Shown: positions 41,972-63,516 of the stretch, piece by piece
Layout of the letters: every line of letters starts with the position of its first letter
How positions within the stretch are numbered: the first letter of the stretch is position 1
DNA from: a virus
Taxonomy: Duplodnaviria > Caudoviricetes
IMG/VR virus record: IMGVR_UViG_3300028833_000158
Coordinates: 1,274-65,273 of that record
DNA length: 64,000 bases
Strand: one strand, 5' to 3'
Made by a program: the position numbers and the translations under genes
Notes under the pieces: model-generated
What the model was told of the DNA's origin: nothing
What the model saw: the letters and a program-made list of their open reading frames with translations, nothing else
The model's database searches: none

Positions 41972-41976
41972 TTCAT

Positions 41977-42001: not shown

Positions 42002-42045
42002 AGGCAACTAACAACCAGCTCACATTCACACGAAAGGAGAATAAA

Positions 42046-42357
42046 ATGAGCAAAGAAAAGGAAGTTAAGGAAGTAAAGGAACAGGAAGTTAAGGCAGTTG
42101 AGCCCGAGAAGAAGGAAGAAAAGAAATCTATACGTCAGAAGATGGCAGAGAAGAAGGAAGCTTTTGTAGAGAAGCATCCTAAGGCAGCAAAAAGGATTTC
42201 TACCGTAGGTAAGGTAGGAACTGGAGTTGTGTTAGGTGTTATCGCAAAGTTTGGATTCGACGCAATCACAGACGCGATTTCTGGATCATCAAACTCAGGT
42301 GATGTCATTGACACCACTTATACAGATGTAACTACTGATAATAGCAATAACTCGTAA
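42046..42357 (+). CDS. K/E-rich protein with C-terminal hydrophobic segment
   Basis: AAAGGAG RBS. Confidence 0.7.
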   Translation: MSKEKEVKEVKEQEVKAVEPEKKEEKKSIRQKMAEKKEAFVEKHPKAAKRISTVGKVGTGVVLGVIAKFGFDAITDAISGSSNSGDVIDTTYTDVTTDNSNNS

Positions 42358-42433
42358 AGAGCGTTGTTAGCCTCCATTTAGAGAGATCAGAAATGGTCTC
42401 TCTATTTTATTTTTTCTTTTGAAAGGAAATGCT

Positions 42434-43099: not shown

Positions 43100-43111
43100 A
43101 AGGAGTAAAAA

Positions 43112-44038: not shown

Positions 44039-44050
44039 AGGAGAATCAGC

Positions 44051-44650: not shown

Positions 44651-45152
44651 GTATTTTAGATCCATATGTCGATTAGTTTGGGATGACCGATTCGGAAAAA
44701 GTTATCGACTGCTTTTTGAGCATTTATATTCTAGGGACTTTGAATGGTCTATTATCATGGATCGTAACAGAGCTATAGATGGTATTTGTTTGCGAGAAAA
44801 GTATGGATGTAGTAACAGCTTATTGAACGAACCTTGCTCAGTTCTAGAAATGCTAATAGCTTTAGCAGCCAGAATGGAAAATCAGATTATGTCTAGTTTC
44901 GATGCTGGAGATAGAACTGGGCAATGGTTCTGGACAATGATTAATAATCTTGAGTTAAATAAATTGGATGACGATCATTTTAACGCAGAGTTGGCTGATT
45001 ATTACATAGATCGATTTCTTTATAGGGAATACGAGTTTGATGGGTCTGGTGGAGGTTTATTCGTATTAGATAGACCTCCGCAAGATTTAAGAGATGTTGA
45101 AATATGGATACAAGCTAATTGGTATCTTGGAGAAATGGATGGATATTTGTAG
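44622..45152 (+). CDS. Conserved hypothetical phage protein
   Basis: F.W.I.MD.NRA.DG..LR, CSVLEMLIALA.R, QWFW.M..NL.L, Y..DG.GG.F, EIW.Q..WY. Confidence 0.8.
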   Translation: MTMNLSQSSKYFRSICRLVWDDRFGKSYRLLFEHLYSRDFEWSIIMDRNRAIDGICLREKYGCSNSLLNEPCSVLEMLIALAARMENQIMSSFDAGDRTGQWFWTMINNLELNKLDDDHFNAELADYYIDRFLYREYEFDGSGGGLFVLDRPPQDLRDVEIWIQANWYLGEMDGYL

Positions 45153-45166
45153 ACGGAGGTATATTA

Positions 45167-49069: not shown

Positions 49070-49092
49070 TTTATATTTTAAGGAGATTAAAA

Positions 49093-49620
49093 ATGAGCAG
49101 AAATTTACTCGAAATCGAAAATGCACAGATCATGTTTAAGAACTTCTCTGGACAGGAGAAGCAGGCTATGGTTAACGGTCGTATGAAGATCGTTAACGAA
49201 GCAGGAAAAAGGAACTTTAATGTTCTTATCGATCCCGAAAAGAGCACTATTTACTGGAATGGCGAGCTTGTTACAAATCCTGACTTCGGTCAGGAACTCG
49301 CCAACCTCGGTTTTAATATCATACTGAGACCCGGAAAAGAAGAGGGAGAAGGACCTCAGTACAGGCTCCCTGTTCATGTTGGCTTTGACAACTTTGTTCC
49401 TGATCTCTATCTTGTTACCGGAAACAAGAAGGTCAAACTTGACGCAGAAAGCATCGATTGCCTTGACAACGCCGATATCATCACGGCTGATATATCTATA
49501 AATAACGGTAGATCGTACGTCGGGAATGACGGTAAGGAAAAGGTTAAGGCTTGGTGTAATATTGGATATTTCACCATTGAGCAGAACCGTTTTGCTTCCA
49601 AGTACGATTTTGCTGAGTGA
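49093..49620 (+). CDS. Probable single-stranded DNA-binding protein
   Basis: IENAQI.FKNFSG.E, N.AG.RNF.V, LD.ADI..ADI.I, aromatic/acidic C-terminus; follows the polymerase. Confidence 0.6.
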   Translation: MSRNLLEIENAQIMFKNFSGQEKQAMVNGRMKIVNEAGKRNFNVLIDPEKSTIYWNGELVTNPDFGQELANLGFNIILRPGKEEGEGPQYRLPVHVGFDNFVPDLYLVTGNKKVKLDAESIDCLDNADIITADISINNGRSYVGNDGKEKVKAWCNIGYFTIEQNRFASKYDFAE

Positions 49621-49643
49621 AAATAATTCATACCTTCTTATGA
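49619..49643 (+). promoter_or_regulatory. Promoter-like motif copy
   Basis: GAAAATAATTCATACCTTCTTATGA; then the GGGTAATAGTGCCC hairpin, identical to the one after copy 33331. Confidence 0.7.
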
Positions 49644-49680
49644 GGGTAATAGTGCCCGGTTTAATAAGGAGGCAAAAAAC

Positions 49681-49983
49681 ATGACACTAAATGCAATACA
49701 GGTTTTGAGCTCTTTAGCAGAGATCGAAAGACTGCTCGACAGAGAAAAAGACGAATGCAGAAACTATATGCACGATATCGTTATTCCACAGACAATGGAT
49801 ATAATGAAACTCGCGCAAGGTGACCTGCTGGACGTCGGAATTGAAGATGTCGAGAAGATCATCGAGATTCGTGCAAAGAGTGAAGAGAAACTCGAACGCA
49901 TGAAGTTTCTGGCTGAATTGTCAGAAAAAATGGCAGAATTGACACATGCACTATGTCCTAGCAAAGAGGATGGAGTCCAGTAA
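49681..49983 (+). CDS. Hypothetical helical protein
   Basis: AAGGAGG RBS; stop in the CAGTAATG hairpin loop. Confidence 0.7.
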   Translation: MTLNAIQVLSSLAEIERLLDREKDECRNYMHDIVIPQTMDIMKLAQGDLLDVGIEDVEKIIEIRAKSEEKLERMKFLAELSEKMAELTHALCPSKEDGVQ

Positions 49984-50024
49984 TGGGCTCTTCCTCTTCT
50001 TTCTGCCCAAAAAGGAGACCACAA

Positions 50025-50504
50025 ATGAAAATAAAAATGATCTTGCTCTTAACTGCAGCATTTATATTTTTATGCGGATTTACTCAAAAGACAGAATCAC
50101 CGAAAGCCATTTATACTGACACAGGTGTTGTTGTACTTGACGGTCGCTTAGAAACTCTAGGACTAACTAGGCAGGAACGTTATGAACTTCGAGCAATCGC
50201 TGAATCTGAAGCTCTAAACCAAGGCATTAAAGGAATGGCCCTAATTATGAGGGTCGTCCTTAATCGCCGCGAGTATGGTGGCTATGGAGAAGACATACAT
50301 TCTATTATATTTGCATATAAACAGTTCTGGACCTATGGTATGCCGCAATCATACGAAAGTTTAAGTAAGGAATCTGAATTAGCACTCATATGGGTAATGA
50401 ATGGCTGGGACGAATCTGAAGGCGCTTTATATTTTTGTGCTTACGGATGGAATGGACCCGAACATTTATTCAAATATGGTGATCATTGGTTTAGTAAAAA
50501 GTGA
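50025..50504 (+). CDS. SleB-like cell wall hydrolase (Hydrolase_2) with signal peptide
   Basis: Signal-like MKIKMILLLTAAFIFLCG; AESEA.NQ...GMA....VVLNR, I...KQF, GALYF, YGDHWF. Confidence 0.75.
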   Translation: MKIKMILLLTAAFIFLCGFTQKTESPKAIYTDTGVVVLDGRLETLGLTRQERYELRAIAESEALNQGIKGMALIMRVVLNRREYGGYGEDIHSIIFAYKQFWTYGMPQSYESLSKESELALIWVMNGWDESEGALYFCAYGWNGPEHLFKYGDHWFSKK

Positions 50505-50511
50505 GGGAAGT

Positions 50512-50694
50512 ATGAGTATATTTAACATTAAGAAAAAGAAAATAGTAAGTGTTATTAAATGCTGTAACTGCGGAAGAAAGTTAGGAGAGTATGTAAAGAC
50601 TGCAGAGATCGAAGATGGTACAGATGATATTTACAATGTTTGCCCGGATTGCTATAAGATAATGATAGATAAGATATCTGGAAAGGAGAAATAA
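50512..50694 (+). CDS. Zinc-finger small protein
   Basis: CCNC...CPDC. Confidence 0.6.
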   Translation: MSIFNIKKKKIVSVIKCCNCGRKLGEYVKTAEIEDGTDDIYNVCPDCYKIMIDKISGKEK

Positions 50695-50912
50695 TGTTTG
50701 TAAAGTTTACTCTGGTTGAAAAAGGAAAAGAACTCAAGATCCTTGCTAACGCTAATTTAATTGACTATGTAGTTGACAATGACGATAAGGAGAAAGATAC
50801 CTGTATACTCATGCTCACAACTGGCATGAAGGGTATTGTTAAGGGTTCTTATGATGATATTTGTAGGCAGGTTATAGCTGCTACAAAGCAAAAGGTACCC
50901 ATAACAAAATGA
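50694..50912 (+). CDS. Hypothetical protein
   Basis: AAAGGAG RBS. Confidence 0.65.
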   Translation: MFVKFTLVEKGKELKILANANLIDYVVDNDDKEKDTCILMLTTGMKGIVKGSYDDICRQVIAATKQKVPITK

Positions 50913-50915
50913 TAT

Positions 50916-50942
50916 TTGCAAAAAATCCATCTTCTATTATGG
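50916..50942 (+). promoter_or_regulatory. Promoter-like motif copy
   Basis: TTGCAAAAAATCCATCTTCTATTATGG; G50918 to ATG 50939. Confidence 0.7.
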
Positions 50943-50970
50943 ACAATAATGTCCAGAAAGGAGATAAAAC

Positions 50971-51321
50971 ATGACAGTAAACAAATATTTAACTACCCGA
51001 TATTGGAAAAGGCGTAATTTGCATAGTGCGCCTTCAGAGAGAGAACTCAGAGATAATTACAACGATGAGGTATTTTATGTTATCGAAAGTTCTGATGTTG
51101 AATGGGTCTTTGAACCGGAATCAGATAAGACGTTTCCAAAGATCAAAGTAAAGCATCAGACTATGGGACATATGTACTACGTGTATCTCGTTCAACTCGA
51201 AGGCGACTTGTATTTTACGAGGTCCATTGGGTCAGAAAGGGAAAACCGCGATTTATTAGCGGCAGGTTTTATGAAAATCCCGAAAGACGTATTGGCAAAG
51301 GAAACACCTTTAACAGTGTAA
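50971..51321 (+). CDS. Hypothetical protein
   Basis: Motif, GGACAATAATGTCC hairpin, AAAGGAG RBS. Confidence 0.7.
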   Translation: MTVNKYLTTRYWKRRNLHSAPSERELRDNYNDEVFYVIESSDVEWVFEPESDKTFPKIKVKHQTMGHMYYVYLVQLEGDLYFTRSIGSERENRDLLAAGFMKIPKDVLAKETPLTV

Positions 51322-51378
51322 CCAATCAAGAGAGATTGATATTTATCAGTCTCTCTTATTCTTTCGAAAGGAGGTAAT

Positions 51379-51579
51379 ATGGTCACGGTAATTAATCAAA
51401 ACGTGCCGATATGTCCAAAATGTGCTTCAGGTATGCACAAGAGGTATAACATGTTCGGTATTGTTTATATTTGTAACGACAATAACCACATCTGGAGAGT
51501 TGTGGATCGCAACAAGAACGATAATGAAATAGTAGTAACTGACAACCATCTCGAAGCGGAGGCGTATAATGGAGAATGA
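51379..51579 (+). CDS. Zinc-ribbon-like small protein
   Basis: CPKC...YIC...H; AAAGGAGG RBS. Confidence 0.65.
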   Translation: MVTVINQNVPICPKCASGMHKRYNMFGIVYICNDNNHIWRVVDRNKNDNEIVVTDNHLEAEAYNGE

Positions 51580-51763
51580 TATTTGTGAAGGCGATGATGT
51601 AATCATATCAGGTAAAGTTACTGCCGTACTTGATATTGACCTTGGCGTACGATATCTTGTAGTATTGCCTAGTAATCGTCGTGTAATTGTAGGGGAAATG
51701 GATATTAAGTCATACCGTCCGGAAGTAAAGGTCGATGGTGAAGATCACAGAAAGGGGAATTGA
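51569..51763 (+). CDS. Hypothetical (SH3/KOW-like) protein
   Basis: EGDDVII.GKV.AV pattern; GGAGG RBS. Confidence 0.55.
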   Translation: MENDICEGDDVIISGKVTAVLDIDLGVRYLVVLPSNRRVIVGEMDIKSYRPEVKVDGEDHRKGN

Positions 51764-52001
51764 TATTATGGTAAATGATCCTACTGTAAAAGAAGTTGTT
51801 TATGGAATGTCAAAGAGAAAGAGACTGGCACTATTCAGAATTATCGAATGTGTTGCAGATAAAAAGCTAATCAAAACAACTGATCTTCTTGTCTATGAAA
51901 GAAAGATGAATAATCAAGAACAGGAAGTAACTCGTTTTCTTATGGCACAGTTATTTACAAGAGTAGGAGGACAAGATGAACCGAGCAGAGAGAAGATCTA
52001 A
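51735..52001 (+). CDS. Hypothetical protein
   Basis: ORF in an overlapping chain. Confidence 0.55.
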   Translation: MVKITERGIDIMVNDPTVKEVVYGMSKRKRLALFRIIECVADKKLIKTTDLLVYERKMNNQEQEVTRFLMAQLFTRVGGQDEPSREKI

Positions 52002-52248
52002 AGGTAACAGACGTAGGAATGATATTTACCAGAAGTATCGTAAGTTTCTGGAGATCGTGGACGACGTAAAGACTTACACATGTGAGACTTGTGGTACGAC
52101 GTTTGGTATCATAGCCTATAAAGATGGAAGGAAATCAGGTACAGCTCAGGCAGGTTTTGCTGAGCCTTGTGAGAAATGTAAGGAGATGATGGCTAATGGA
52201 GATTACGGACAAGGAATTAATAAACCTTCAGAAACAGCAGGCGATTGA
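51976..52248 (+). CDS. Zinc-binding hypothetical protein
   Basis: MNRAERR start; CETC...CEKC; AGGAGG RBS. Confidence 0.65.
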   Translation: MNRAERRSKGNRRRNDIYQKYRKFLEIVDDVKTYTCETCGTTFGIIAYKDGRKSGTAQAGFAEPCEKCKEMMANGDYGQGINKPSETAGD

Positions 52249-52432
52249 AACATTAGAAGATGTGCTTGACTTACTTGATCTGGAAGACCTTGATATTCAC
52301 AGAGAGCTCGAGTTTAAGTTTCTGAACAGACGTGGTAAAGATATGTACGCCGGTATGGATAAGATCCTCAATAGAACTCGTAAGAGAATACGTGAGGCTA
52401 TTGTTTATATTAAGGAGGATATGGATGAATAA
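52196..52432 (+). CDS. Hypothetical protein
   Basis: ORF in an overlapping chain. Confidence 0.55.
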   Translation: MEITDKELINLQKQQAIETLEDVLDLLDLEDLDIHRELEFKFLNRRGKDMYAGMDKILNRTRKRIREAIVYIKEDMDE

Positions 52433-52856
52433 CGATATGGACGCTCAATTCTTATGTAAGGATTGTTCGAGATTCAACCAGTGCCAGTACTACGACAGAA
52501 GAAAAGGTGATTCCTACATCTGTAAATATTTTCACTTGGCAGAAACCTATGGCGTGACTAATGGTGATGTGATGAGGGTGCTGTTTCCGAATTGCGTGCA
52601 AAACGAGAATAGGAATTGGGTAGGTACAAACATTGACGGTTATACAACGTTTTCAACAGTGTGGTGGAATGCAACTTATAAGAAAGAATGTATCAAGACA
52701 TTGCCGACAGTCGAGAAAGAAAGTTGTCGTTGTAATACTTGCAAGAATAATGATGATGAATTAAGTGGCGAATGCTACGAATGTGTCAAAGGGATATTTG
52801 ACCACTATGAAAAAGAGAATAAAACGGAGGTAGAAAATGGACGAACGAATGATTGA
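52425..52856 (+). CDS. Cys-rich hypothetical protein
   Basis: AAGGAGG RBS; CKDC..C, TNGDV.R.LFP, CNTC...CYEC. Confidence 0.65.
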   Translation: MNNDMDAQFLCKDCSRFNQCQYYDRRKGDSYICKYFHLAETYGVTNGDVMRVLFPNCVQNENRNWVGTNIDGYTTFSTVWWNATYKKECIKTLPTVEKESCRCNTCKNNDDELSGECYECVKGIFDHYEKENKTEVENGRTND

Positions 52857-53055
52857 ACAATTACAAAAAGACAATGTAAGAAAGCAGATAATGGATTTTA
52901 TTCCCAACAATCTCGGAATTAACCTTTGTTCTGTCGAGGATATTATTGTACGCAGACAGAAAAATGGAGAAATCACAAAAATCATCATTGATTTTATTCC
53001 CGAAGAACCCGAACCTAAACCAATGGTTGGTTTAGATGGTGCTGTTTTAGCGTGA
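52837..53055 (+). CDS. Hypothetical protein
   Basis: GGAGG RBS. Confidence 0.6.
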   Translation: MDERMIEQLQKDNVRKQIMDFIPNNLGINLCSVEDIIVRRQKNGEITKIIIDFIPEEPEPKPMVGLDGAVLA

Positions 53056-53081
53056 TGCAGAGCAGATATGAGAGGTGAAGA

Positions 53082-53174
53082 ATGCTTGACAAAATCCTAA
53101 TGGTCGCAATTGGCCTTCTTTGTATTTGGCTCGTGTGGTTGCTGATAATGATAATTAAAGGAGATAAGAAATGA
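53082..53174 (+). CDS. 30-aa membrane peptide
   Basis: MLDKILMVAIGLLCIWLVWLLIMIIKGDKK; GAGGTG RBS; ATGA overlap with the next gene. Confidence 0.5.
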   Translation: MLDKILMVAIGLLCIWLVWLLIMIIKGDKK

Positions 53175-53650
53175 GCTACGAAACAAACGATAAGATGGTA
53201 AGTCATCCGGATCATTATAAGTCCGGGAAGTATGAGGTCATTGATATTATTGACGAGTTTACTAAAGACTTGTCAGGAACTGAGGCTGTATGTACGGCTA
53301 ATGCAATTAAGTATATTCTGAGATGGAAGAAAAAGAACGGCATTCAGGATGTGAAGAAAGCTATTTGGTATCTCACACATCTGGTTGAGCATTTGGAATC
53401 TCAGGTGATTCATGCGGATCCAGAATGTGCTAGGAAGATGGAAGAGTTTGAGAATTCTATTGATATTTCCAGAGAGCTCGAATTTGCACAGACTGGCAAA
53501 TGGCCGGAAAGGGAAGTGGAGTATGATGGGCCTGACGAGCACTGTAGAACTTGCATGTCTAGGTTTGAAACGCCGGAGAATGACGAAAAGTGCATTAACT
53601 GTTATGGAAGAGAGAATTATGAACCAGATCTGAATAAGGAGAGCAACTAA
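53171..53650 (+). CDS. DUF3310 / T7 gp1.7-like nucleotide kinase domain protein
   Basis: MVSHPDHY.SG..EVID.I, NAIKY..RW.KKNG.QD.KKA.WYL. Confidence 0.8.
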   Translation: MSYETNDKMVSHPDHYKSGKYEVIDIIDEFTKDLSGTEAVCTANAIKYILRWKKKNGIQDVKKAIWYLTHLVEHLESQVIHADPECARKMEEFENSIDISRELEFAQTGKWPEREVEYDGPDEHCRTCMSRFETPENDEKCINCYGRENYEPDLNKESN

Positions 53651-53844
53651 TGAGCCTACAAGACAAGATAACTAATGCTAAACCCACGACGTTTCTTACA
53701 GATGGGTTGACACAGGAAGAAGTAAAGCAGTGTGTTGAGAGCGGTAGGAAAGTCACAATAGATGACGATGAAGCTCCAACTACACCTATGAGAGTTGTAG
53801 ATATTCCGGGACAGGAAAATAAAATCTACGTGCCAATTAATTGA
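53650..53844 (+). CDS. Hypothetical protein
   Basis: AAGGAG RBS. Confidence 0.55.
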   Translation: MSLQDKITNAKPTTFLTDGLTQEEVKQCVESGRKVTIDDDEAPTTPMRVVDIPGQENKIYVPIN

Positions 53845-53869
53845 TTAAATAGGAAAAGAGGTATGAATT

Positions 53870-54601
53870 ATGGAAGAAGAAAATAAACTTTGTTGCAACT
53901 GCAAATTTGTGACAGTACTTTATAATGAAGAGCCTTGCAAGTCTTGTCATTTGAGATCAAATTGGCAGAGTAATGTCAAATTCAAGACGGGTGATTTAGT
54001 GGTTTCGAAAAACGACCCTTGTAGAAAAAACCTTTATGTTTATTTGCGTAATAAATGGGTTCTGCGCGTACCAAATTATGTCACTACTAGGTCAAGTTAT
54101 ATTATATCATCAGCCGGTTATCGTGGTTCCGAAATGATAGATAAACTTATACGTAATTCTAACGCCGAATGTGAATGGTTAGATGATCTAGAATATGCCA
54201 GCCCGGAAATTATTACGCAACACGATGACAGAGCGGAGAATCTTTATATTCCTGAGCCTTTTGGCGAATGGTTTCCTAAATTAATTGAAGAGGAACGTGA
54301 TCAGAAACAGAAGATAGCATTAGATGAAGTATATAGCGCTAAAGAATTCTTCACATTTTTTGATAGGAAACCAAAAGTATTCACCACGCCAAACATGATC
54401 AAGAACGTCATCTTCAGTGATCCGGCTACTATTATATTCTGGGAGGACGGTACTAAGACCGTTGTGAAAACTCAGGATGGCGAGAAGTATGATAAGGAAA
54501 AAGGATTTGCAATGGCGGTATGTAAGAAGGTATTTGGTAATGAAAGAGACTACTATAATGTCTTTAAACGTTGGATGAGAAAAGGAAAAGAGGTAAAATA
54601 A
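53870..54601 (+). CDS. Hypothetical protein with conserved phage C-terminal domain
   Basis: IKNVIF.DPATI.FW.DGTKTVVK...E.YD.EKG.AMA..KK..GN. Confidence 0.75.
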   Translation: MEEENKLCCNCKFVTVLYNEEPCKSCHLRSNWQSNVKFKTGDLVVSKNDPCRKNLYVYLRNKWVLRVPNYVTTRSSYIISSAGYRGSEMIDKLIRNSNAECEWLDDLEYASPEIITQHDDRAENLYIPEPFGEWFPKLIEEERDQKQKIALDEVYSAKEFFTFFDRKPKVFTTPNMIKNVIFSDPATIIFWEDGTKTVVKTQDGEKYDKEKGFAMAVCKKVFGNERDYYNVFKRWMRKGKEVK

Positions 54602-54602
54602 T

Positions 54603-55202
54603 ATGGAAATAGCATTTTATATTCTGTTAGTGAGCTGGGTAATACTGCTTGCGTGTTGTATAGTTGCTATATCGCGTTTTAAGAAGGCTAATGACAGTCT
54701 TGACACCAGCCTTGATACGGTGATTGAGCGTAATGAAGAGATTCAGAGCCTTATGAATCAGCTTGATGTCGCCGAGCAGGACATAGACTTTTGGAAAGAT
54801 ACATGCGACAAGATGCAGTGGACAATAAATGATCTCAATAAACGCATAGGTAACATGAAAGCCACTGAAGAAAACGGAAGTATTCTATATGTGGATAAGG
54901 GGAACATTGAGTATGTCAATGCAGCTATCGATATAAGCGCTAATGTAATAAAAGATATTACTGAAGGTAGACTTGATATTGATCAAGTAGAAGACTCATT
55001 ACGTTTTAACATTAAGCGTGTGATGATGGACGAACTGCTGTCACATGCTAAGTTCTATGTGACTTATGATATTTCAAGCAATTCTTATAGTTTTGTAGTA
55101 AGGATTCCTATTGTTGCGTTAAATGGTTCAGAGCGGGAATACAGTAAATGTGCTGGGTATCCGCTTACAAATATTCTGCTTGAAAAGGTTAAGGAGGAAT
55201 AA
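54603..55202 (+). CDS. Membrane-anchored coiled-coil protein
   Basis: N-terminal TM helix followed by heptad repeats. Confidence 0.65.
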   Translation: MEIAFYILLVSWVILLACCIVAISRFKKANDSLDTSLDTVIERNEEIQSLMNQLDVAEQDIDFWKDTCDKMQWTINDLNKRIGNMKATEENGSILYVDKGNIEYVNAAIDISANVIKDITEGRLDIDQVEDSLRFNIKRVMMDELLSHAKFYVTYDISSNSYSFVVRIPIVALNGSEREYSKCAGYPLTNILLEKVKEE

Positions 55203-55203
55203 T

Positions 55204-55473
55204 ATGTTACGTTTAGATTTAAATGATATCAACGAAACAGTCTTATTTGTTAATCCCGTGAATGGTGTTAAGATTCTTAAACAAAAAGATGATGATTCTG
55301 AAGAAACAACCTATGTATTATTAATCGATACGGGTGACATCGTGTGCTATGCTGAATATAATTCAGAAGACATTCGCGATGCGGTTTATGGGTATGTCCT
55401 GAATAAGATTAATGAATACTTATTTCAACAGATTGAAGCTGCTCAGTTGCGTTGTAAGGAGGAAACATGTTAA
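55204..55473 (+). CDS. Hypothetical protein
   Basis: AAGGAGG RBS. Confidence 0.6.
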   Translation: MLRLDLNDINETVLFVNPVNGVKILKQKDDDSEETTYVLLIDTGDIVCYAEYNSEDIRDAVYGYVLNKINEYLFQQIEAAQLRCKEETC

Positions 55474-55703
55474 AAGCTATAGTAACGGTGATGGACGAAA
55501 ATGATAGAATCATTCAGGCTAACAGATTGATATTTGAGACTGATCCTTTTGGTACACCTGTTGGCTGTGGCATTGAGCATGACTTTCATTTTAAGATCAT
55601 CACTGCAGATGAAGAGCTTATACGTAAGGTCACAGAAGAAGGTCTTAAACTTAGTGCTGAAGAAATTCATAAAATGATAATTCATAAAATGATGGAGGAA
55701 TAG
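55467..55703 (+). CDS. Hypothetical protein
   Basis: AAGGAGG RBS. Confidence 0.6.
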   Translation: MLKAIVTVMDENDRIIQANRLIFETDPFGTPVGCGIEHDFHFKIITADEELIRKVTEEGLKLSAEEIHKMIIHKMMEE

Positions 55704-55704
55704 A

Positions 55705-56118
55705 ATGAACAAGGATGAGATTTTGATAATTATGTATCCTTTTTGGATGAAGAATAATCAACTTAGTTCAATGTATGAAAACATTCTTAAACAAAGAGCA
55801 AATAATCTTATACTTCTTCCGGATTACTGTAAGGTTGTTACAGCACCTAAAGATGTCGAGATTAAGACAGAGATGGAGAATGACGATTCATCTTCACTTT
55901 GGTTACTTGTTGATAATCCGAATTATTCTCCATTTGATCGTAGAACTAGACCAGTAAGTCTGAAATGTGACGTATGTCATAGGCGTATAGACAAATGGGG
56001 TGATGATTATTTGAGATGCCCTTATTGTGGTAAGAAGCATACGTTTGGAGCGGAAGAGGAGAAGGAATATACTAATGAAGAATTAGATGAAGCTTTTGAT
56101 AATGGAAGAGGAGGTTGA
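55705..56118 (+). CDS. Zinc-ribbon protein
   Basis: CDVC...CPYCG; GGAGG RBS. Confidence 0.65.
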   Translation: MNKDEILIIMYPFWMKNNQLSSMYENILKQRANNLILLPDYCKVVTAPKDVEIKTEMENDDSSSLWLLVDNPNYSPFDRRTRPVSLKCDVCHRRIDKWGDDYLRCPYCGKKHTFGAEEEKEYTNEELDEAFDNGRGG

Positions 56119-56124
56119 TATTTT

Positions 56125-56484
56125 ATGGGATACAGACCTACTATATATGTAAATCGTAGACCGAAATTGGAACTTGGTAAATTTTATGGGTATGTAAACA
56201 TGGATAATCTTAAGTCAGTTAAGTGGCTCGAGGATCACGGTAAAATAGAGCTGGATGAGATGTTTGCTGGATACGGACCGGAAATAGATTTTACTGCTGA
56301 TGAGTTTCGTGAATTCTGGGATCTTTATGTTCAGGATATTAACGAATATGTTTGGAAAGAAGACGATTGGATAAGATATGACGAACCATTCAATCCTGAT
56401 TATTATCCTCATGCCTGGAAAAGAGGAACTTTCAAAGAAAACTTATATGATACAGACGATGTAAAGACTATTAAGTGGTTTTAA
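56125..56484 (+). CDS. Hypothetical protein
   Basis: AGGAGG RBS; MGYR...Y, GKFYGY. Confidence 0.7.
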   Translation: MGYRPTIYVNRRPKLELGKFYGYVNMDNLKSVKWLEDHGKIELDEMFAGYGPEIDFTADEFREFWDLYVQDINEYVWKEDDWIRYDEPFNPDYYPHAWKRGTFKENLYDTDDVKTIKWF

Positions 56485-56499
56485 GGAGGATTGATATTC

Positions 56500-56686
56500 T
56501 ATGCGGTGGCGGAATAGGTAGACGCAAATACAAATTCATGAGGATTCCAGCAGCTAACGGTTGGCAGTCATGCGAGGGTTGAGACTACGTGCCGAAAAAG
56601 CGGGACCAGGTGGAGATCATTAAACTCAAATCATGAAGAAAAAGACCGTATGTAAGGTGACAGAAATTCAAATCCTTACCCGCATA
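56500..56686 (+). ncRNA. Oversized tRNA-like element (Leu/Ser-type D arm, no canonical anticodon arm)
   Basis: Perfect TATGCGG/CCGCATA acceptor stem, TG-GCGGAATAGGTAGACGC D arm, GTAAGG/CCTTAC T stem with TTCAAAT; ~125-nt structured insert; no encoded CCA. Confidence 0.6.
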
Positions 56687-56705
56687 TTAAAAGAAAGGAG
56701 GAACA

Positions 56706-56909
56706 ATGAAAGTTTCCGAACTATATAATGAAATGCTTAAGTTATTGGAAGACGGAAAAGGAAATTATGAAATTATGATTCGCGTTGCGGACGATGACGA
56801 AAAAAGGGATTTGATATCTCATATTGACAATGTTAAATCTTTTTCTTCAAAAGTTGGATATGTTGAACTGACATCTGTTAATAACGCGTATTTAGATTGG
56901 AGAGAATGA
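56706..56909 (+). CDS. Hypothetical protein
   Basis: AAAGGAGG RBS. Confidence 0.6.
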   Translation: MKVSELYNEMLKLLEDGKGNYEIMIRVADDDEKRDLISHIDNVKSFSSKVGYVELTSVNNAYLDWRE

Positions 56910-56942
56910 CATTTGGTTCAAAGTAAGGAGGATTGATATTCT

Positions 56943-58103
56943 ATGATCGATCTTGACAAAATGCTTTACGATCATCAGAAGAAAGCAATCCGTAATATGA
57001 GGAACGGTTGTATACTTAATGGTGGAGTGGGGTCTGGGAAATCTCGGACCTCACTTGCTTACTATTACCAGAAAGAAAAAGATCGTCCTCTTTATATTAT
57101 CACCACTGCTATGAAGCGTGATTCAAGAGAGTGGGAAGAAGAGGTTTTATATTTCTTTCCTTGTAAAGCCACGGCAATAGACAGTTGGAATAATATTAAG
57201 AAATACACGGATGTAAAAGATGCTTTCTTTATATTTGACGAAGACCGTGTTACAGGCTATGGCGCATGGGTTAAGGCATTTCTCAAGATAACAAAGTCTA
57301 ACCATTGGATAATATTATCAGCTACGCCTGGAGACACATGGTCTGATTATATTCCTGTATTCATAGCTAATGGTTTCTATCGTAATAAGACAGAATTCAC
57401 GCAAAAGCATGTCATATGGAATCGTTATACTACCTTTCCTAAAATAGATGGTTATGTTCATACTGGATATTTAAATGGCCTTCGTAGGAAAGTTCTAGTT
57501 AATATGGAAGACGAAAGGAAGACAGTACAGCACCATGAAGATATTTATTGTACGTATCCGATTACGGATTATAAGCGTGTTATTAAAGATCGCTGGGATA
57601 TTTTCAAAGAGGAACCATTCCAGAATGCAGGAGCGATGTGCTATTGCCTCAGGAAAGTTGTTAACTCAGACCCTAGCAGACTTGATAAGGTATATGATAT
57701 TACAGAACGGAAGGGAAAGGCTATCATATTCTACAACTACGATTACGAACTTGAGCGACTTAAGGCTGGATTTGCAGATGGATATTTTGAAGTTGCGGAA
57801 TGGAACGGACACCGACATCAAGAAATTCCTGTTGAGAGTGAAAGATGGATATACTTGGTGCAATACAATTCTGGGTCAGAAGGATGGAATTGTGTCTTAA
57901 CTGACACTATTATATTTTACTCGCAGACATACAGCTATAAGCAATTGAAGCAGGCGTGTGGTAGAATAGATAGGATTAATACTCCTTACCATGATTTATA
58001 TTTTTATCATCTTAAGAGTCGTTCGGGCATTGATCTGGCAATCAGTCGTGCACTTGCTGATAAGAAGAACTTTAATGAGAATGATTTTGTTGTTGGGATG
58101 TAG
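56943..58103 (+). CDS. SF2 (SNF2/DEAD-like) helicase
   Basis: LYDHQ, GGVGSGKS, IFDE, ILSATP, EGWN, QACGRIDR. Confidence 0.9.
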   Translation: MIDLDKMLYDHQKKAIRNMRNGCILNGGVGSGKSRTSLAYYYQKEKDRPLYIITTAMKRDSREWEEEVLYFFPCKATAIDSWNNIKKYTDVKDAFFIFDEDRVTGYGAWVKAFLKITKSNHWIILSATPGDTWSDYIPVFIANGFYRNKTEFTQKHVIWNRYTTFPKIDGYVHTGYLNGLRRKVLVNMEDERKTVQHHEDIYCTYPITDYKRVIKDRWDIFKEEPFQNAGAMCYCLRKVVNSDPSRLDKVYDITERKGKAIIFYNYDYELERLKAGFADGYFEVAEWNGHRHQEIPVESERWIYLVQYNSGSEGWNCVLTDTIIFYSQTYSYKQLKQACGRIDRINTPYHDLYFYHLKSRSGIDLAISRALADKKNFNENDFVVGM

Positions 58104-58142
58104 TAAATAATTCATGCCTTCTTATGAAAGGAGGAAATATTT

Positions 58143-58403
58143 ATGTTTGAAAACAAAGCTTTTGAAAAGATTTATTACTCGAGATTTATAGCATCTTGGT
58201 ATAATTCTGGAGGAAAGCGTATCAGATCATACGTTGACAGTGAAAAGAGACCTAACGATTTTGTTAGGTGGCTTCGCACGTTAACTATAAATGATAAGCA
58301 AATTCCGGAAGATGTAATCAAGGATATTCTCGAAATGGCAACAAATGGCAAGGCAGAGTTGGAATGGAACTTAAACAAATACTTAAAAGAGATTGGGCAG
58401 TAA
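58143..58403 (+). CDS. Conserved hypothetical protein
   Basis: I.YSRFIASW...GG, F..WL..L, I..MA.NGK.ELE; stop in the CAGTAATG hairpin loop. Confidence 0.75.
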   Translation: MFENKAFEKIYYSRFIASWYNSGGKRIRSYVDSEKRPNDFVRWLRTLTINDKQIPEDVIKDILEMATNGKAELEWNLNKYLKEIGQ

Positions 58404-58463
58404 TGCCCTTTCCCTTTTATTTTGTAAATAATTCACTTCCTATTATGAAAGGAGGTGATGAAT

Positions 58464-58655
58464 ATGACTTATGGAGAATTCAAAGACGTAGTTAAAAAGA
58501 CTTATCCGAATAGCGAGAATCATTTTGCAATTGGAGGCGGAATATTATTAAAGATGCCTTCATGGAAAGATGAAGAGATTAACGCATTGACGGTAAAAAG
58601 TTATGAACAGGATAGCTACGACGATGAAAACTGGTTTTTTGTCACAGCAAAGTAA
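58464..58655 (+). CDS. Hypothetical protein
   Basis: AAAGGAGGTG RBS. Confidence 0.65.
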   Translation: MTYGEFKDVVKKTYPNSENHFAIGGGILLKMPSWKDEEINALTVKSYEQDSYDDENWFFVTAK

Positions 58656-58741
58656 CAAATTAAGAGGGCTTGATATTTGATCAGGCTCTCTTATTCTTTT
58701 CGTAATTAATTCACTTCCTATTATGAAAGGAGGTAATTATT

Positions 58742-58957
58742 ATGACTAATAAAAGTTTTGAAAACACAATGATGGCACTTATTGAAGTTGGAAAACTGAT
58801 TAAGTTTGACGAGACCAGCAGTGATTACACTGATGATCTTTGTGACAAGTTAGCAGAAGTAACTAAAATATTGTCATCTATGTATGGTGATCAACAACTT
58901 AGAAAGAGTAAAAAACTCAATAAAAAACTTGAAGAAATATACGGAGATTGGGGCTGA
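58742..58957 (+). CDS. Hypothetical protein
   Basis: AAAGGAGG RBS. Confidence 0.65.
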   Translation: MTNKSFENTMMALIEVGKLIKFDETSSDYTDDLCDKLAEVTKILSSMYGDQQLRKSKKLNKKLEEIYGDWG

Positions 58958-59019
58958 AATATGCCCCTTTCCCTTTTATTTTTTATCGAAGGTTTATCAT
59001 TTGGGCTATTTTTGGGTCA

Positions 59020-59290
59020 AAAAATCGTGGTTAAAAATGTGGTTAAAAATAACCATTTGGTTAAAAATATTTAACCATTTGCAAAATTTTTTGGAATTTT
59101 TGGTTAAAAATGTAAAAATTTTTAACCAAATGGTTAAAAATAAAAAATTTTTAACCAGGCTGAAACCCAGTATTCATGCGGGTTTCAGAGGTTTTTGGTT
59201 AAAAGGTTAAAAATATTTTATAATTAATGTGAAAAAAAAATATGTATATATAATAATATAGAAAAATTTTTAACCATTTAACCAAAATGA
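59020..59290. repeat. AT-rich iteron-like region, candidate replication origin
   Basis: GGTTAAAAAT at 59029, 59041, 59059, 59102, 59132 and later, inverted TTTTTAACC copies interleaved, plus a long A/T-only stretch. Confidence 0.65.
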
Positions 59291-59313
59291 TATTTTTCAC
59301 GATTTTTAGAGTT

Positions 59314-59369
59314 TCGCAAAAAAATGTTGCCCTTTTATGGGAGAGAAGGTTATATGATGACCTTTTCTC
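59314..59369 (+). promoter_or_regulatory. Promoter-like motif plus 5' hairpin upstream of the nuclease/RNAP operon
   Basis: TCGCAAAAAAATGTTGCCCTTTTATGG (G59316 to ATG 59337), then GAGAAGGT..ACCTTTTCTC stem. Confidence 0.7.
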
Positions 59370-59411
59370 TTATTTTTATTTTTGTGTTTGGATTTTGGGA
59401 AGGAGACAAAC

Positions 59412-59732
59412 ATGAAGACGAGTAAGCAAAGACAGTACAAAAAAGAAGAAAGGAAGTTTCAATCTAGTCTTATACGAGAAATCAAAGAAAGGTTCCCTGG
59501 TTCGATGGTCTTGAAGAATGATCCGAATTATATTCAGGGAATTCCGGATTTGTTAGTATTGTATAACAAGCGTTGGGCGTCTTTGGAATGCAAACGTTCG
59601 TCGTCTAGTACTCACCAACCAAATCAGGATTATTATGTTGACAAGATGAACAAAATGTCATTCAGTCGATTTATATTTCCCGAGAATAAGGAGGAGGTAC
59701 TAGATGATCTGGAACAATCATTCAAATCTTGA
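59412..59732 (+). CDS. VRR-NUC/Holliday junction resolvase-like nuclease
   Basis: E..FQ..L..EIK.RFPG..V.KND...IQGIPDL.VL....WA.LECKRS. Confidence 0.8.
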   Translation: MKTSKQRQYKKEERKFQSSLIREIKERFPGSMVLKNDPNYIQGIPDLLVLYNKRWASLECKRSSSSTHQPNQDYYVDKMNKMSFSRFIFPENKEEVLDDLEQSFKS

Positions 59733-60264
59733 AGGCCAGCACGCTTTTATGAGTGCGAGCAAATTTCAGTGGATTAATTACACAGATATGAAATTGCTTG
59801 AAACTTATAACAACATGATGGCTGCACAAAGAGGAACTGAGTTACATGCATTTGCAGCTCAGTGTATTAAGCTTAGACAAAAATTAAAAGGCAAAGATAA
59901 TTTAGCAAACTATGTAAATGATGCAGTCGGATTTGGAATGACTCCTGAAGTTGTTTTATATTATTCCGATGTTTGCTTTGGTACTGCCGATGCTATTAAG
60001 TTTGATGAGAAGAAAAAGTTTTTAAGGATTCACGATTTAAAAACTGGTGTCACTAAAGTTCACATGGAACAGCTGGAAGTTTATGCAGCTTTATTTTGTC
60101 TTGAGTATCACATGAAGCCTGGCGATATAGGAATGGAGCTAAGGATATACCAGAATGATGATGTAATGATATTTGAACCTACTGCTGAAAACATAGTTCC
60201 AATTATGGACAAAGCAGTTAGCTTCACAAAACTAATTCATAACAACAATTTAATAGGAGTTTGA
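59704..60264 (+). CDS. PD-(D/E)XK exonuclease (DUF2800/Cas4-like)
   Basis: HAF.SAS...W, GT.LH.FA, FGTADAI, LRIHDLKTG, QL.VYAALF. Confidence 0.8.
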   Translation: MIWNNHSNLEGQHAFMSASKFQWINYTDMKLLETYNNMMAAQRGTELHAFAAQCIKLRQKLKGKDNLANYVNDAVGFGMTPEVVLYYSDVCFGTADAIKFDEKKKFLRIHDLKTGVTKVHMEQLEVYAALFCLEYHMKPGDIGMELRIYQNDDVMIFEPTAENIVPIMDKAVSFTKLIHNNNLIGV

Positions 60265-60266: not shown

Positions 60267-63236
60267 ATGAATGAGTATGAAAGTTTCAAAGCTTATGAAG
60301 AGCTTGAAGAGGGTTTATATTTAGAGCATTACGGAACTCCTAGACATTCTGGTAGATATCCTTGGGGCTCGGGAAAAAATCCTTATCAGCACGACAGCGA
60401 AGACTGGTTAGCAAGAGTAGAAAAGCTTCGTTCAAGAAAAAATATGGATGATAAGCAGATTGCTCGAGAAATGGGATGTACGATTAACCAGTTAAGAGCT
60501 TGGGAATCAGTTGCTAAAAACGAAAGAAAGAATGCTCAGATCACTTGGTGTAAGAAACTTGCATCTGAAGGAAAATCAGTTGCAGAGATAGAGCAGATAA
60601 CTGGAATCAAAGACAGAACAGTAAGAAACTATCTTAACAGCAATAGAGATGTTAAACCTTTGCAGGCTCAGGCAACAGCTAAGTTCTTGGAAGAACAGGT
60701 TGATAAGAAAGGTTATATTGATATTGGTAAAGGTGTAGAGAAAGATATTGTAGCAGTTGATGGAACTCTTGGAATTACATCTAACAAGCTTAAAGAAGCT
60801 ATGGAAATAATGAAAAGAGATGGCTATGATATTTACACCAATCTTAAGGTTCCTCAAGCAACTAATCCAAAGAATATGACAACTCGAGTAGTTGCATGTA
60901 AGTTCCCTGAAGGAATGACAACTAACGAGAAATACAAAGAGCTGTATAAAGCAAGAGATAATGGTGATATTCAGTCTGTTGCCGAGTATCATTCAGATGA
61001 TGCTGGTCTTACATGGAATGCTCCTAAACCTCCTGTATCTATTGATTCAAATAGAATAAAAGTTGTTTATGCTGAAGATGGAGGAATTGAGAAAGATGGT
61101 GTCATCGAAATAAGAAGAGGCGTTGCAGACTTAAGTCTTGGTGATTCTCATTATGCTCAGGTTCGTATTGCTGTTGATGGAACTCATTATCTTAAAGGTA
61201 TGGCAGTTTATAGAGATGGCAAAGACATGCCTGATGGAGTTGATATTTTGTTTAACACCAACAAGCATAGTGACAAGAAGATGATCGATGGTGATAATGG
61301 TGTTCTTAAACCAATGAAAGAAGATCCAGCTCATAAAGGAAAGATAGATCAGAGTAATCCATTTGGAGCTGTTATTATGCGTGGTGGACAATCTGATTAT
61401 GAGGATCCTAAAACTGGTGAAGTTAAACAGTCTGCTATAAATAAGATACATGATCAGGGTGATTGGGGAGAATACTCTAAAGATCTTCCTGCTCAGTTCT
61501 TATCTAAACAGAACACAGATCTCATAAAGAAACAGCTTCAGTATTCTATTAATGACATGCGTAATGAGTTCAACGATATTATGGCGATCGATAATCCTAC
61601 GATTCGTAAATATTATTTGGACAAGTTTGCATCAAGTTGTGATTCAAAAGCCGTGCATCTTAAAGCTTCTGCTCTTCCTAGGCAGCAGTATCAGGTTATT
61701 CTTCCTGTTCCGTCACTTAAGGACAATGAGATCTATGCTCCTAATTACAGAGATGGAGAACAAGTAGCGTTGGTAAGGTTTCCTCATGGTGGAACATTTG
61801 AGATACCTATATTGACTGTTAATAATAAGAATCCAGAAGCTAAGAAGTTACTTGGCACTGATCCTTCTGATGCTGTCTGCATAAATAAGAATATTGCAGA
61901 TCGATTGTCAGGTGCAGACTTTGATGGAGATACAGCAATTGTCATACCAACAGGCAGAGGAAACAAGGTTAAGATAACTAACTCTGATCCTCTTAAAGGT
62001 CTTGTTGGTTATGATGCGAAAGAAGAATATGCAACTCATGTCGAAGAGAAGAATGGTAAGAAAGTATATGTCAATAAGAATGGCGTTGTAATAAAACCCA
62101 TGGATGAGAGGACAACTCAGATAGAAATGGGTAAAGTTACAAATCTTATTACAGATATGACTGTTGCTGGTGCTCCTCTTGATGACATTGCTAAAGCTGT
62201 TAGGCATTCTCAAACTGTAATCGATGCTAAGAAACACCATCTTGACTATAAACAATCAGAGATAGACAATGACATAGCATCATTAAAGGTTATGTATCAG
62301 AGAAGAATAGATGAGAATGGTGATCTTCACATTGGTGGTGCATCTACACTGTTGTCTAGAGCTAAGCATGAGAAAGCATATCCTGAAACCAAAGGTCAAG
62401 TACATTACAACCAGATAGGAAAGCCTTGGTATAATCCGGACCTTCCTGAAGGAGCATTAATACTTAAAGAATCTGGTAGAACATTCGAAGAGACTAAGCC
62501 TGTCAAGGATGCTGATGGTAATGTAATGTACTATGAGGATACTGGTAAGCCTATAAAGGCTAAGACTGGTAAGGTTAAGCTAGCCACAGTAGATAGACCC
62601 GAGATGGCTATGACTAATGATGCTCGTACCCTGTTGTCTGCTATAAGGAGCGAGCCGGAGCTACTATATGCGGACTATGCAAACCAACTTAAAGCATTAG
62701 CAAATGAGTCACGAAAGACAATCATGTACACAAAAGGTTTGCAGTACAATCCTTCAGCTAGGAAAGAGTATGCAGAAGAAGTAGCGTCCCTTAAGGAGAA
62801 GCTAGACAATGCCTATAGGCAGAAGCCTAAGGAGGCTAGAGCACAGAACATAGCCCTGGGTATAATCAATGAGAAGATTAAGGCAGACCCTAACCTTAGT
62901 AAGAAGGATGAGAAGAAGATTAGACAGTTAGCTATAGAAACAGCAAGGTCACAGGTGGGTGTTGATCGAAAAGATAGGGAAATCACACTCACAGATAGGG
63001 AATGGGCAGCAATACAAGCTGGTGCAATTAGTGATCATATACTTTCTGAGATACTAAACAATACAAATCCTGACAGTTTAAGAGAAAGAGCAACTCCTTC
63101 TAACAACAGAGCGTTGTCTGAATCTCAAATGGCAAGGATTCGTAACATGCATAATGGTTACTATACTATTGCAGAGATTGCTGATGCAATGGGTGTTTCT
63201 ACATCAACTGTTTCTAGAGTTTTGAAAGGAGCATAA
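60267..63236 (+). CDS. Putative single-subunit two-barrel (DFDGD) RNA polymerase with N- and C-terminal HTH domains
   Basis: QVR....YLKG (61158-61199), VRFPH (61776), LSGADFDGD (61911-61931); HTH-like segments at both ends; N-terminal YLEHYG tag. ATG 60267 fits the RBS better than TTG 60261. Confidence 0.75.
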   Translation: MNEYESFKAYEELEEGLYLEHYGTPRHSGRYPWGSGKNPYQHDSEDWLARVEKLRSRKNMDDKQIAREMGCTINQLRAWESVAKNERKNAQITWCKKLASEGKSVAEIEQITGIKDRTVRNYLNSNRDVKPLQAQATAKFLEEQVDKKGYIDIGKGVEKDIVAVDGTLGITSNKLKEAMEIMKRDGYDIYTNLKVPQATNPKNMTTRVVACKFPEGMTTNEKYKELYKARDNGDIQSVAEYHSDDAGLTWNAPKPPVSIDSNRIKVVYAEDGGIEKDGVIEIRRGVADLSLGDSHYAQVRIAVDGTHYLKGMAVYRDGKDMPDGVDILFNTNKHSDKKMIDGDNGVLKPMKEDPAHKGKIDQSNPFGAVIMRGGQSDYEDPKTGEVKQSAINKIHDQGDWGEYSKDLPAQFLSKQNTDLIKKQLQYSINDMRNEFNDIMAIDNPTIRKYYLDKFASSCDSKAVHLKASALPRQQYQVILPVPSLKDNEIYAPNYRDGEQVALVRFPHGGTFEIPILTVNNKNPEAKKLLGTDPSDAVCINKNIADRLSGADFDGDTAIVIPTGRGNKVKITNSDPLKGLVGYDAKEEYATHVEEKNGKKVYVNKNGVVIKPMDERTTQIEMGKVTNLITDMTVAGAPLDDIAKAVRHSQTVIDAKKHHLDYKQSEIDNDIASLKVMYQRRIDENGDLHIGGASTLLSRAKHEKAYPETKGQVHYNQIGKPWYNPDLPEGALILKESGRTFEETKPVKDADGNVMYYEDTGKPIKAKTGKVKLATVDRPEMAMTNDARTLLSAIRSEPELLYADYANQLKALANESRKTIMYTKGLQYNPSARKEYAEEVASLKEKLDNAYRQKPKEARAQNIALGIINEKIKADPNLSKKDEKKIRQLAIETARSQVGVDRKDREITLTDREWAAIQAGAISDHILSEILNNTNPDSLRERATPSNNRALSESQMARIRNMHNGYYTIAEIADAMGVSTSTVSRVLKGA

Positions 63237-63246: not shown

Positions 63247-63516
63247 ATGGGACAAATAATTAAATCTATGCTCACAACAGTTGACAATCCTTACAATCCA
63301 TTCAATAACTTTGATGATTGGTATCGTTTTGACAAAGACAATCATCACGATAGTTGTGAGCGACTTGCTGAAATTCTTCCTGATCTTGATGATGCAAATG
63401 AAGTTGAAGCAATTAAAATGACAGAATCAGCTATTAATTACATTGTTGAAAATGATTTACTTGGTGAGTTCACAAAAGTTCAGAAAGTTTGTGAAATAGA
63501 TGACGGAACTGAATAG
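63247..63516 (+). CDS. Conserved hypothetical protein
   Basis: MLTT.DNPYNPF..FDDWY.FD....H..C..LA pattern. Confidence 0.75.
   Translation: MGQIIKSMLTTVDNPYNPFNNFDDWYRFDKDNHHDSCERLAEILPDLDDANEVEAIKMTESAINYIVENDLLGEFTKVQKVCEIDDGTE

Follow-up and report, generated by a model that had tools for sequence, protein, structure and literature searches.

What does the long gene near the right end of an uncultured 65-kb gut phage (38% G+C) encode, if the domains recognized in its product are of the helix-turn-helix (HTH) type, and what would the protein do for the phage? The stretch analyzed here (the window) is 64,000 nucleotides long and comprises bases 1274 to 65273 of the 65,273-bp IMG/VR virus record IMGVR_UViG_3300028833_000158, which is rated complete. 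All genes of the phage run rightwards, and the gene in question is the second-to-last. The original prediction, made from the letters of the sequence, was that it encodes a compact phage RNA polymerase (RNAP) of the two-barrel type, with double-psi beta-barrel (DPBB) domains, a claim that is supported by the predicted fold and by the invariance of the catalytic residues. The explanation that we consider best overall, and somewhat probable, is a self-targeting, single-chain, DNA-dependent two-barrel RNAP that would read a 28-nucleotide promoter.

Catalytic motifs and conservation of the RNAP gene

The gene is a single uninterrupted open reading frame (ORF) on the + strand (60261/60267-63236). 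An AGGAG box lies 7 nucleotides before the ATG at 60267, making this ATG the likely start of a protein of 989 residues, whose numbering is used throughout.

60267..63236, + strand: RNAP gene, 989 residues, stop included (ORF, ribosome-binding site and ATG, PHROG 4291, AlphaFold2 model)

The first catalytic motif reads Q298-V-R300 ... Y-L-K310-G311 (nucleotides 61158-61199), the second R504-F-P506-H (61776-61787) and the third L547-S-G-A-D551-F-D553-G-D555 (61905-61931). This is the order, QVR..KG, RFPH and LSGADFDGD, that had been proposed for a protein of about 990 residues, and the distance from RFPH to the first Asp of DFDGD, given earlier as about 45 residues, is 47.

A homologue scan over 1.84 billion cluster representatives (clustered at 50% identity) returned 2224 relatives at an E value of ≤0.001 and 817 at ≤1e-30, and a word-indexed search matched the RNAP to at least 8000 clusters at 90% identity. 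In an alignment of 100 homologues taken from the cluster representatives, mostly 43 to 56% identical to the query, Q298, R300, K310, G311, R504, P506, S548, G549 and A550 were invariant, as were D551, D553, G554 and D555, so that the DFDGD motif, whose conservation had been put forward as a check, is kept across diverse relatives. D277 and D288 were each retained in 99 of the 100. In kind and order these residues match the eight that form the signature of QDE-1 and the two-barrel polymerases (D709, R738, K743, R962, P964, D1007, D1009 and D1011; Ruprich-Robert & Thuriaux, PMC2919709); we take the fourth acidic residue to be either D277 or D288. Invariance of the catalytic residues in 100 homologues, within a family of 817 diverged representatives, argues for selection on catalysis. 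It also bears on the idea of a DNA-binding regulator carrying a relic, noncatalytic polymerase fold, which would agree with the detection by Pfam of HTH domains only; with all metal- and substrate-binding residues invariant, we regard it as extremely improbable.

The protein belongs to PHROG 4291 (E = 0, 1072 bits, residues 20-990 against positions 11-907 of a 909-position profile). By tblastn, homologues were found in 250 deposited isolate phages at 36 to 44% identity, with alignments covering 97% of the query in 249 of the 250 records. Their hosts are mainly Arthrobacter (95), Gordonia (55), Streptomyces (54) and Lactococcus (13), together with Curtobacterium, Rhodococcus, Microbacterium and Faecalibacterium, and some records come from gut viromes. 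The homology is full length in the family that comprises the 1706-like phages of Lactococcus, Faecalibacterium phage FP_oengus and the actinophages (Streptomyces BI, Arthrobacter AM/AU, Gordonia DJ and related clusters). Its members share the HTH units at both ends and the invariant motifs, and their RNAP gene follows VRR-Nuc and exonuclease genes at the right end of the genome. The RNAP studied here is at most 44% identical to any deposited phage homologue, and a near-identity DNA search of 14 kb against deposited phages recovered just a 192-nucleotide patch, inside the RNAP gene of Arthrobacter phages.

Annotation of the family is inconsistent. Most of the 250 GenBank homologues are labeled "helix-turn-helix DNA-binding domain protein," metagenome sources label relatives "CsgD family transcriptional regulator," and PHROG 4291 and some RefSeq records use the name "RNA-dependent RNA polymerase." Pfam gave HTH families alone (25 best of 40 families at E ≤ 1), and PF05183, the RNA-dependent RNA polymerase (RdRP) family, was not among these 25 best. 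Annotation as an HTH protein had thus been anticipated correctly. The "HTH DNA-binding protein" label is incomplete and the "RNA-dependent RNA polymerase" label probably wrong; the latter appears to derive just from similarity to the Pfam RdRP family, to which an alignment of the family matched with an HHpred probability of 95.7% (Koert et al., bioRxiv 10.1101/842583). The same authors (2021) described exactly this HTH-flanked protein as a putative RNAP, noted its DxDGD motif and made its gene the signature of a supercluster in which actinophages are united with phages of Lactococcus and Faecalibacterium. Earlier, the phage 1706 protein had been placed among five YonO-like polymerase families, the 1706 and SPbeta proteins forming separate, distantly related ones (Ruprich-Robert & Thuriaux 2010, PMC2919709). 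The family has therefore already been predicted computationally as a polymerase, and the present copy is a further, fairly divergent member. We found no biochemical study of the HTH-RNAP family in the literature; the supplements of PMC10770324 do not name it, and surveys of Arthrobacter (PMC5513430), Rhodococcus (PMC13313380) and Microbacterium (PMC7302621) phages mention neither the RNAP nor the motif described below.

Predicted fold and the likely template

A phmmer search of the RNAP against PDB sequences gave no match, and the 100-homologue profile recovered HTH proteins only among PDB chains, with no significant polymerase and a nonsignificant touch on the P23-45 tape-measure RNAP near DFDGD (E of about 0.4). 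The AlphaFold2 model, built from the 100-sequence alignment, had a mean predicted local distance difference test (pLDDT) score of 87.1 and a predicted template modeling (pTM) score of 0.81. It suggests the following plan.

60315..60386, + strand: conserved N-terminal tag, about residues 17-40 (predicted disordered, pLDDT of about 46-53)
60405..60710, + strand: two N-terminal HTH units, helical, about residues 47-148 (Pfam and model helices)
61023..61466, + strand: barrel A (DPBB-A, beta/Rpb2-like), about residues 253-400, with D277, D288, R300 and K310-G311 (structural alignments)
61656..61961, + strand: catalytic barrel B (DPBB-B, beta-prime/Rpb1-like), about residues 464-565, with R504-x-P506 and D551-F-D-G-D555 (Rpb1-type matches)
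62016..62366, + strand: post-barrel helical region, about residues 584-700 (model, within the Rpb1-type matches)
63105..63233, + strand: C-terminal HTH, about residues 947-988 (Pfam HTH_23, HTH_38, HTH_3 and HTH_7, all above cut-offs)

Residues 1-45, which hold the tag (invariant at G23, S28, G29, R30 and G36), are disordered in the model. Across about residues 50-126, Pfam matched Sigma70_r4_2 (32.6 bits, above cut-off), HTH_19, GerE and MerR_1; a region-4-type HTH of sigma-70 was therefore matched, with Sigma70_r4 itself below cut-off, generic HTH families making up the other matches and no sigma region 2 in the Pfam scan of the RNAP. The protein is not a sigma factor, although this part of it may perhaps act as a built-in specificity module. 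A small alpha/beta domain (residues 150-250) precedes barrel A, and helices (409-464) separate the barrels. Long helices at 614-634 and 638-657 follow barrel B and contain a series of invariant residues (M621, G622, N626, L627, I628, D630, A644, I652, D653, K656 and H657), and we consider residues 584-700 a candidate bridge-helix-like element. The remainder is beta-rich at 700-780 and forms long helices at 796-945.

The closest solved structure was Neurospora QDE-1 (Foldseek E = 9e-10; VIA-align Z of 15.8 over 363 residues, root mean square deviation of 4.3, residues 253-822 of the model), followed by plant RDR2 (E of about 1e-6, Z of 15.4) and the phage enzymes P74-26 gp62 and P23-45 gp64 (E of about 1e-6, Z of 13.4, residues 253-825). 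Sequence identity to QDE-1 and RDR2 was 12 to 17%. Residues 464-691, the DFDGD barrel with the helices behind it, matched Rpb1 and the largest subunits of the African swine fever virus (ASFV), Pol I and Pol III enzymes with Z of 10.2 to 10.8; by Foldseek, largest-subunit chains including the bacterial beta-prime reached an E of about 1e-2. In the BFVD library the matches were other viral "RNA-dependent RNA polymerase" predictions and P23-45 gp64. Barrel A (253-400) is covered by the QDE-1, RDR2 and gp64 alignments, which all begin at residue 253. Folded alone (residues 250-420), it reached a pLDDT of 88.4; the structural Z values of this piece were just 2.3 to 3.9, so that the support is qualitative, but nearly all of its best matches are double-psi barrels. 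Its matches include RDR2, QDE-1 residues 677-787, gp62, designed DPBBs and VAT-N/Cdc48-N, the second-largest subunits of the AR9, phiKZ, ASFV, vaccinia and Pol III enzymes, and residues 914-1105 of crAss phage phi14:2 gp66 (Z of 2.9). The model thus places two barrels in one chain, which is what the check for two DPBB domains had called for, and membership in the two-barrel RNAP superfamily is supported by this predicted structure. Comparison with QDE-1, YonO and crAss gp66 had been suggested as well, and here the outcome was mixed: the likeness to QDE-1 is clear, gp66 matched the whole model weakly (Foldseek E = 0.028, not among the VIA-align matches listed), and no sequence similarity to YonO was seen, hhalign of the 100-sequence family profile against the single YonO sequence giving a probability of 0.2 and no match. 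The family therefore does not appear to be close to YonO in sequence.

The enzyme would fall in a class formed by the QDE-1/RdRP-like and phage single-subunit clade of the double-psi beta-barrel superfamily. QDE-1 and RDR2 share with it the order Asp, R..K, RxP, DxDGD and a likeness that extends over both barrels and the following helices; unlike it, QDE-1 is dimeric, has no HTH domain and works in silencing on single-stranded RNA or DNA instead of from promoters. P23-45 gp64 and P74-26 gp62 are likewise minimal, single-chain, nonvirion two-barrel RNAPs of Thermus phages. gp64 is reported to serve early and middle genes from a promoter motif of its own and to leave late genes to the host enzyme (PMC10770324), but it is about 600 residues long, has no fused HTH and uses a GC-rich promoter, and its phage also encodes a virion RNAP that is fused to the tape measure protein. 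At the sequence level, no similarity between gp64 and the present RNAP was found. YonO of the Bacillus prophage SPbeta, another phage RNAP with two barrels in one chain of about 100 kDa and with the signature residues of the superfamily, is DNA dependent and processive (PMC5467207); it differs in serving a late operon and in having no annotated HTH ends. crAss phi14:2 gp66 is two-barrel too and differs by its size (2166 residues), whereas the N4 virion RNAP (vRNAP; about 3500 residues) is T7-like and not two-barrel; what both have in common with the present RNAP is the notion of early transcription being started by an enzyme of the phage, packaging being hypothetical in the present case.

Because its fold relative gp64 (PMC10770324) and the distant YonO (PMC5467207) are DNA dependent and it carries three HTH units, the RNAP very likely transcribes the phage's own double-stranded DNA rather than copying RNA. 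An enzyme that is truly RNA dependent and copies phage or host RNA, for instance to make double-stranded or antisense RNA, would fit with RNA interference polymerases as the closest solved folds and with QDE-1, whose activity is both RNA and DNA dependent (PMC9508822). We nevertheless judge it very improbable, since the phage has a double-stranded DNA genome, DNA is the template of those phage enzymes that have been tested (gp64 and YonO), and the fused HTH domains point to recognition of duplex DNA.

The 28-nucleotide motif and its possible reader

A repeat search of the window recovered an intergenic family of about 40 nucleotides, from which a 28-nucleotide motif was defined, found before nearly every early or middle transcription unit.

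33330..59342, + strand: span of the 23 copies of the 28-nucleotide motif, candidate promoters of early/middle genes (position matrix)
59315..59342, + strand: motif copy upstream of the VRR-NUC/exonuclease/RNAP/phrog_4303 operon (position weight matrix, 33.6 bits)
59337..59383, + strand: leader hairpin of 17 bp and U-run, directly after that motif copy, at the start of the RNAP operon transcript

The consensus is roughly cGCAaaaatTaCAtg.ccTaTaATGaga. All 23 copies (among them 33330, 33640, 34036, 36679, 41977, 58423 and 59315) are on the + strand between 33.3 and 59.3 kb, each shortly upstream of a ribosome-binding site, and the position matrix found none in the structural half (1-33 kb).

In 80 related IMG/VR loci the position matrix gave about 100 distinct forward hits against a single reverse one, and a site about 960 nucleotides before the RNAP start recurred in dozens of them; the operon copy is equivalently placed in Arthrobacter, Gordonia and Streptomyces phages. 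With a matrix made from the 23 sites alone, nine sites (15.7 to 26.0 bits, against a mean shuffle maximum of 11.7) were found in Gordonia phage Secretariat (52% G+C). All are forward, lie at 30.5 to 37.7 kb and immediately precede small genes located beyond the tail genes. The five strongest forward hits of this matrix in Streptomyces phage RosaAsantewaa are motif copies too, but a single one of them, at 18.8 bits, scores above every shuffle (at most 14.7); a spacing pattern yields six in-register copies there. Arthrobacter phage Circum has eight in the same register. The shared core consists of CGC at positions 1-3, ACA at 11-13, a T-A-rich box at 19-24 and an ATG-purine at 23-26, with lineage-specific variants CGCAAA, CGCGAAA and CGCGTAAA. 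Pumancara, which infects the same Arthrobacter strain but has no such RNAP, gave no motif hit (maximum of 7.4 bits), and a 50-kb stretch of SPbeta had one forward hit of 14.3 bits that was no better than the reverse strand (12.0) or shuffles.

Between 33 and 37 kb, a sigma-70-type scan showed no enrichment (19 versus 13.6 ± 3.5) and missed the motif copies, except for one partial overlap at 35511; the TTGCAA-like box of the motif lies just 13 to 14 nucleotides from its TATTAT box. Intrinsic terminators at 33000-37000 are strongly enriched (13 versus 2.0 ± 1.6 expected) and stand directly before motifs, making this region a row of terminator-promoter-gene units, although some of these mini-units are without an obvious ORF. 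No HTH or sigma domain was found by Pfam in 71 other small and medium ORFs, nor did one turn up in PHROGs or Pfam scans of about 20 larger proteins. The motif string was not found in the papers searched, and those read on these phages mention no such motif, tag or leader hairpin. The simplest reading of these patterns would be that the conserved polymerase with its HTH units uses the motif as its promoter.

We slightly favor, on balance, a mechanism in which the RNAP would find its promoters itself, through the two N-terminal HTH units and the C-terminal one, with the 28-nucleotide motif as promoter and initiation at or just after its ATG. As a functional analogy only, T7-type RNAPs also combine one chain with a promoter of about 25 nucleotides that runs through the start site and has an A+T-rich melting box followed by purines; their right-hand fold is unrelated, and no homology is claimed. 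The RNAP operon would itself be driven from a motif copy, behind a possibly attenuating leader. The leader hairpin (free energy of −19.5 kcal/mol, z of −5.4, with none of 200 shuffles folding as well) has arms that, by eye, are the same in the leaders of relatives, and together with the U-run it could attenuate the operon. For the late structural genes (1-33 kb), transcription would fall to the host enzyme or result from read-through once the genome ends are joined.

The main competitor to self-targeting is a YonO-like division of labor, in which host sigma-A, perhaps with a phage factor, would read the motif and make the early and middle genes, including the RNAP, and the RNAP, starting at a promoter close to the ends of the genome, would then serve the structural and lysis genes (1-33 kb). 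This would agree with the known role of YonO, which transcribes its late operon only (PMC5467207). It would also accommodate a TATAAT/TATTAT box at the right distance from the putative start, need no injected enzyme for an RNAP gene that lies behind a motif copy, and supply the other signal that must serve a structural region without motif copies. However, conservation in register of CGC at 1-3, ACA at 11-13 and GA after the ATG, between phages of gut Firmicutes and of three actinobacterial genera, is not expected of sigma-A promoters. Moreover, there is no usable −35 element at 16 to 18 nucleotides, the box in the Streptomyces phage and many gut relatives is TTAAAT/TTTTAT, without A at position 2, the RNAP-less phage of the same Arthrobacter host has no motif, and the repeat search gave no repeated candidate late promoter at 1-33 kb. 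We consider this division of labor rather unlikely.

If no early or middle unit, the RNAP operon included, can be transcribed without the phage enzyme, self-targeting requires either an injected enzyme or a first transcript made by the host. The N-terminal tag resembles that of several head-module proteins, so that the first enzyme molecules may arrive with the virion. The RNAP opens with a YL[EA]H[HY]G stretch, the first 8 to 10 residues of the tag resemble the start of DUF7211, and DUF7211 elements (YLEHHG/FLEHHG) occur in three proteins near the portal gene (570-668, 1663-1698 and 3266-3364). Relatives have up to five proteins with a DUF7211 start, many of them small, and intermediate forms of the tag exist, for example in the Gordonia RNAP. 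The shared stretch may be a signal for capsid loading or processing, and packaging of the RNAP in the virion is a possibility that we hold doubtful.

Several points weigh against a self-targeting enzyme of this kind. The injection of enzyme, demanded if all early units need the RNAP, is a prediction only, and the RNAP N terminus gave no score against Pfam DUF7211 at E < 0.1. YonO, distant relative as it is, transcribes late and not early genes (PMC5467207). The motif box is a perfect TATAAT in three actinophage lineages (TATTAT in this phage), and host sigma-A could therefore use the motif as a −10 element, with the upstream blocks serving a regulator. The motif could in reality be read by small DNA-binding proteins that Pfam does not recognize. 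In the 23 kb examined of Lactococcus phage P092, two half-motif sites, in the two largest gaps, were not above background. Finally, we infer the grouping of the invariant residues around one metal site from structural matches.

A bolder version, in which a self-sufficient, promoter-specific RNAP with a 28-nucleotide promoter portable across phages of Firmicutes and Actinobacteria is brought into the capsid by a tag that it shares with other cargo proteins and is then injected, seems to us unlikely. If true, the enzyme would be much smaller than any other virion RNAP, and it would be the first known case of a two-barrel enzyme whose specificity module is part of the same chain. Recognition of the motif by the HTH-RNAP alone would offer a compact model (110 kDa, one chain) of promoter recognition without sigma or general factors and a possible orthogonal transcription tool for Gram-positive hosts. 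It would also give a concrete reason for the ability of the lineage to pass between phyla and still keep a G+C content that differs widely from that of its hosts. The family is very large and includes the 250 isolate phages, which grow on culturable hosts.

Genome context and minor observations

The RNAP gene lies at the end of the replication and recombination module, whose main genes and neighbors are as follows.

45119-49069, + strand: primase-polymerase, 1316 residues, with primase domain
56943-58103, + strand: helicase
59382..60264, + strand: VRR-NUC endonuclease (phrog_93) and Cas4/RecB-like exonuclease (phrog_3953), upstream of the RNAP gene
63247..63516, + strand: small conserved gene (phrog_4303), after the RNAP gene and last before the right genome end

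The order VRR-Nuc, exonuclease, RNAP, small gene and genome end is kept in Streptomyces phage RosaAsantewaa, Arthrobacter phage Circum and Gordonia phage Secretariat, and the small gene follows the RNAP gene in Lactococcus phage P092 as well. The orthologous RNAP is gp98 in Circum and gp83 in Secretariat. The location in this module, with synteny kept across phyla, could indicate that the RNAP makes primers or an origin-activating transcript for the primase-polymerase and helicase instead of mRNAs. Nevertheless, the 1316-residue polymerase already has a primase domain, and three HTH units and a motif with 23 copies in front of genes fit transcription better than priming; we find a role linked to replication quite improbable.

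At the left genome end (bases 1-88, just left of the window) there are two tandem 44-nucleotide copies, and at the right end a G7/C6 hairpin near the terminus (window positions 63966-63991). The two ends are similar to their counterparts in RosaAsantewaa, suggesting that they are genuine cohesive ends and that packaging signals have been conserved.

The protein encoded at 9-1394 has an internal DUF7211 element, a hydrophobic stretch and, in its C-terminal part, a weak match to a papain-fold glutamine deamidase (Pfam Gln_amidase, E = 0.011, below cut-off); a role as an injected effector is conceivable. The tape measure protein (8233-16905) is very long, with 2890 residues. The large terminase gene (29123-30853) comes after the tail genes, with about 22 kb between it and the upstream genes for the portal and the protease-capsid fusion (4087-7210); in actinophage relatives, terminase and portal genes are adjacent or a few small genes apart. 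Three paralogues of Pfam DUF6353/phrog_2152 are present in the early/middle region (40120-40944, 41123-41971 and 43112-44038).

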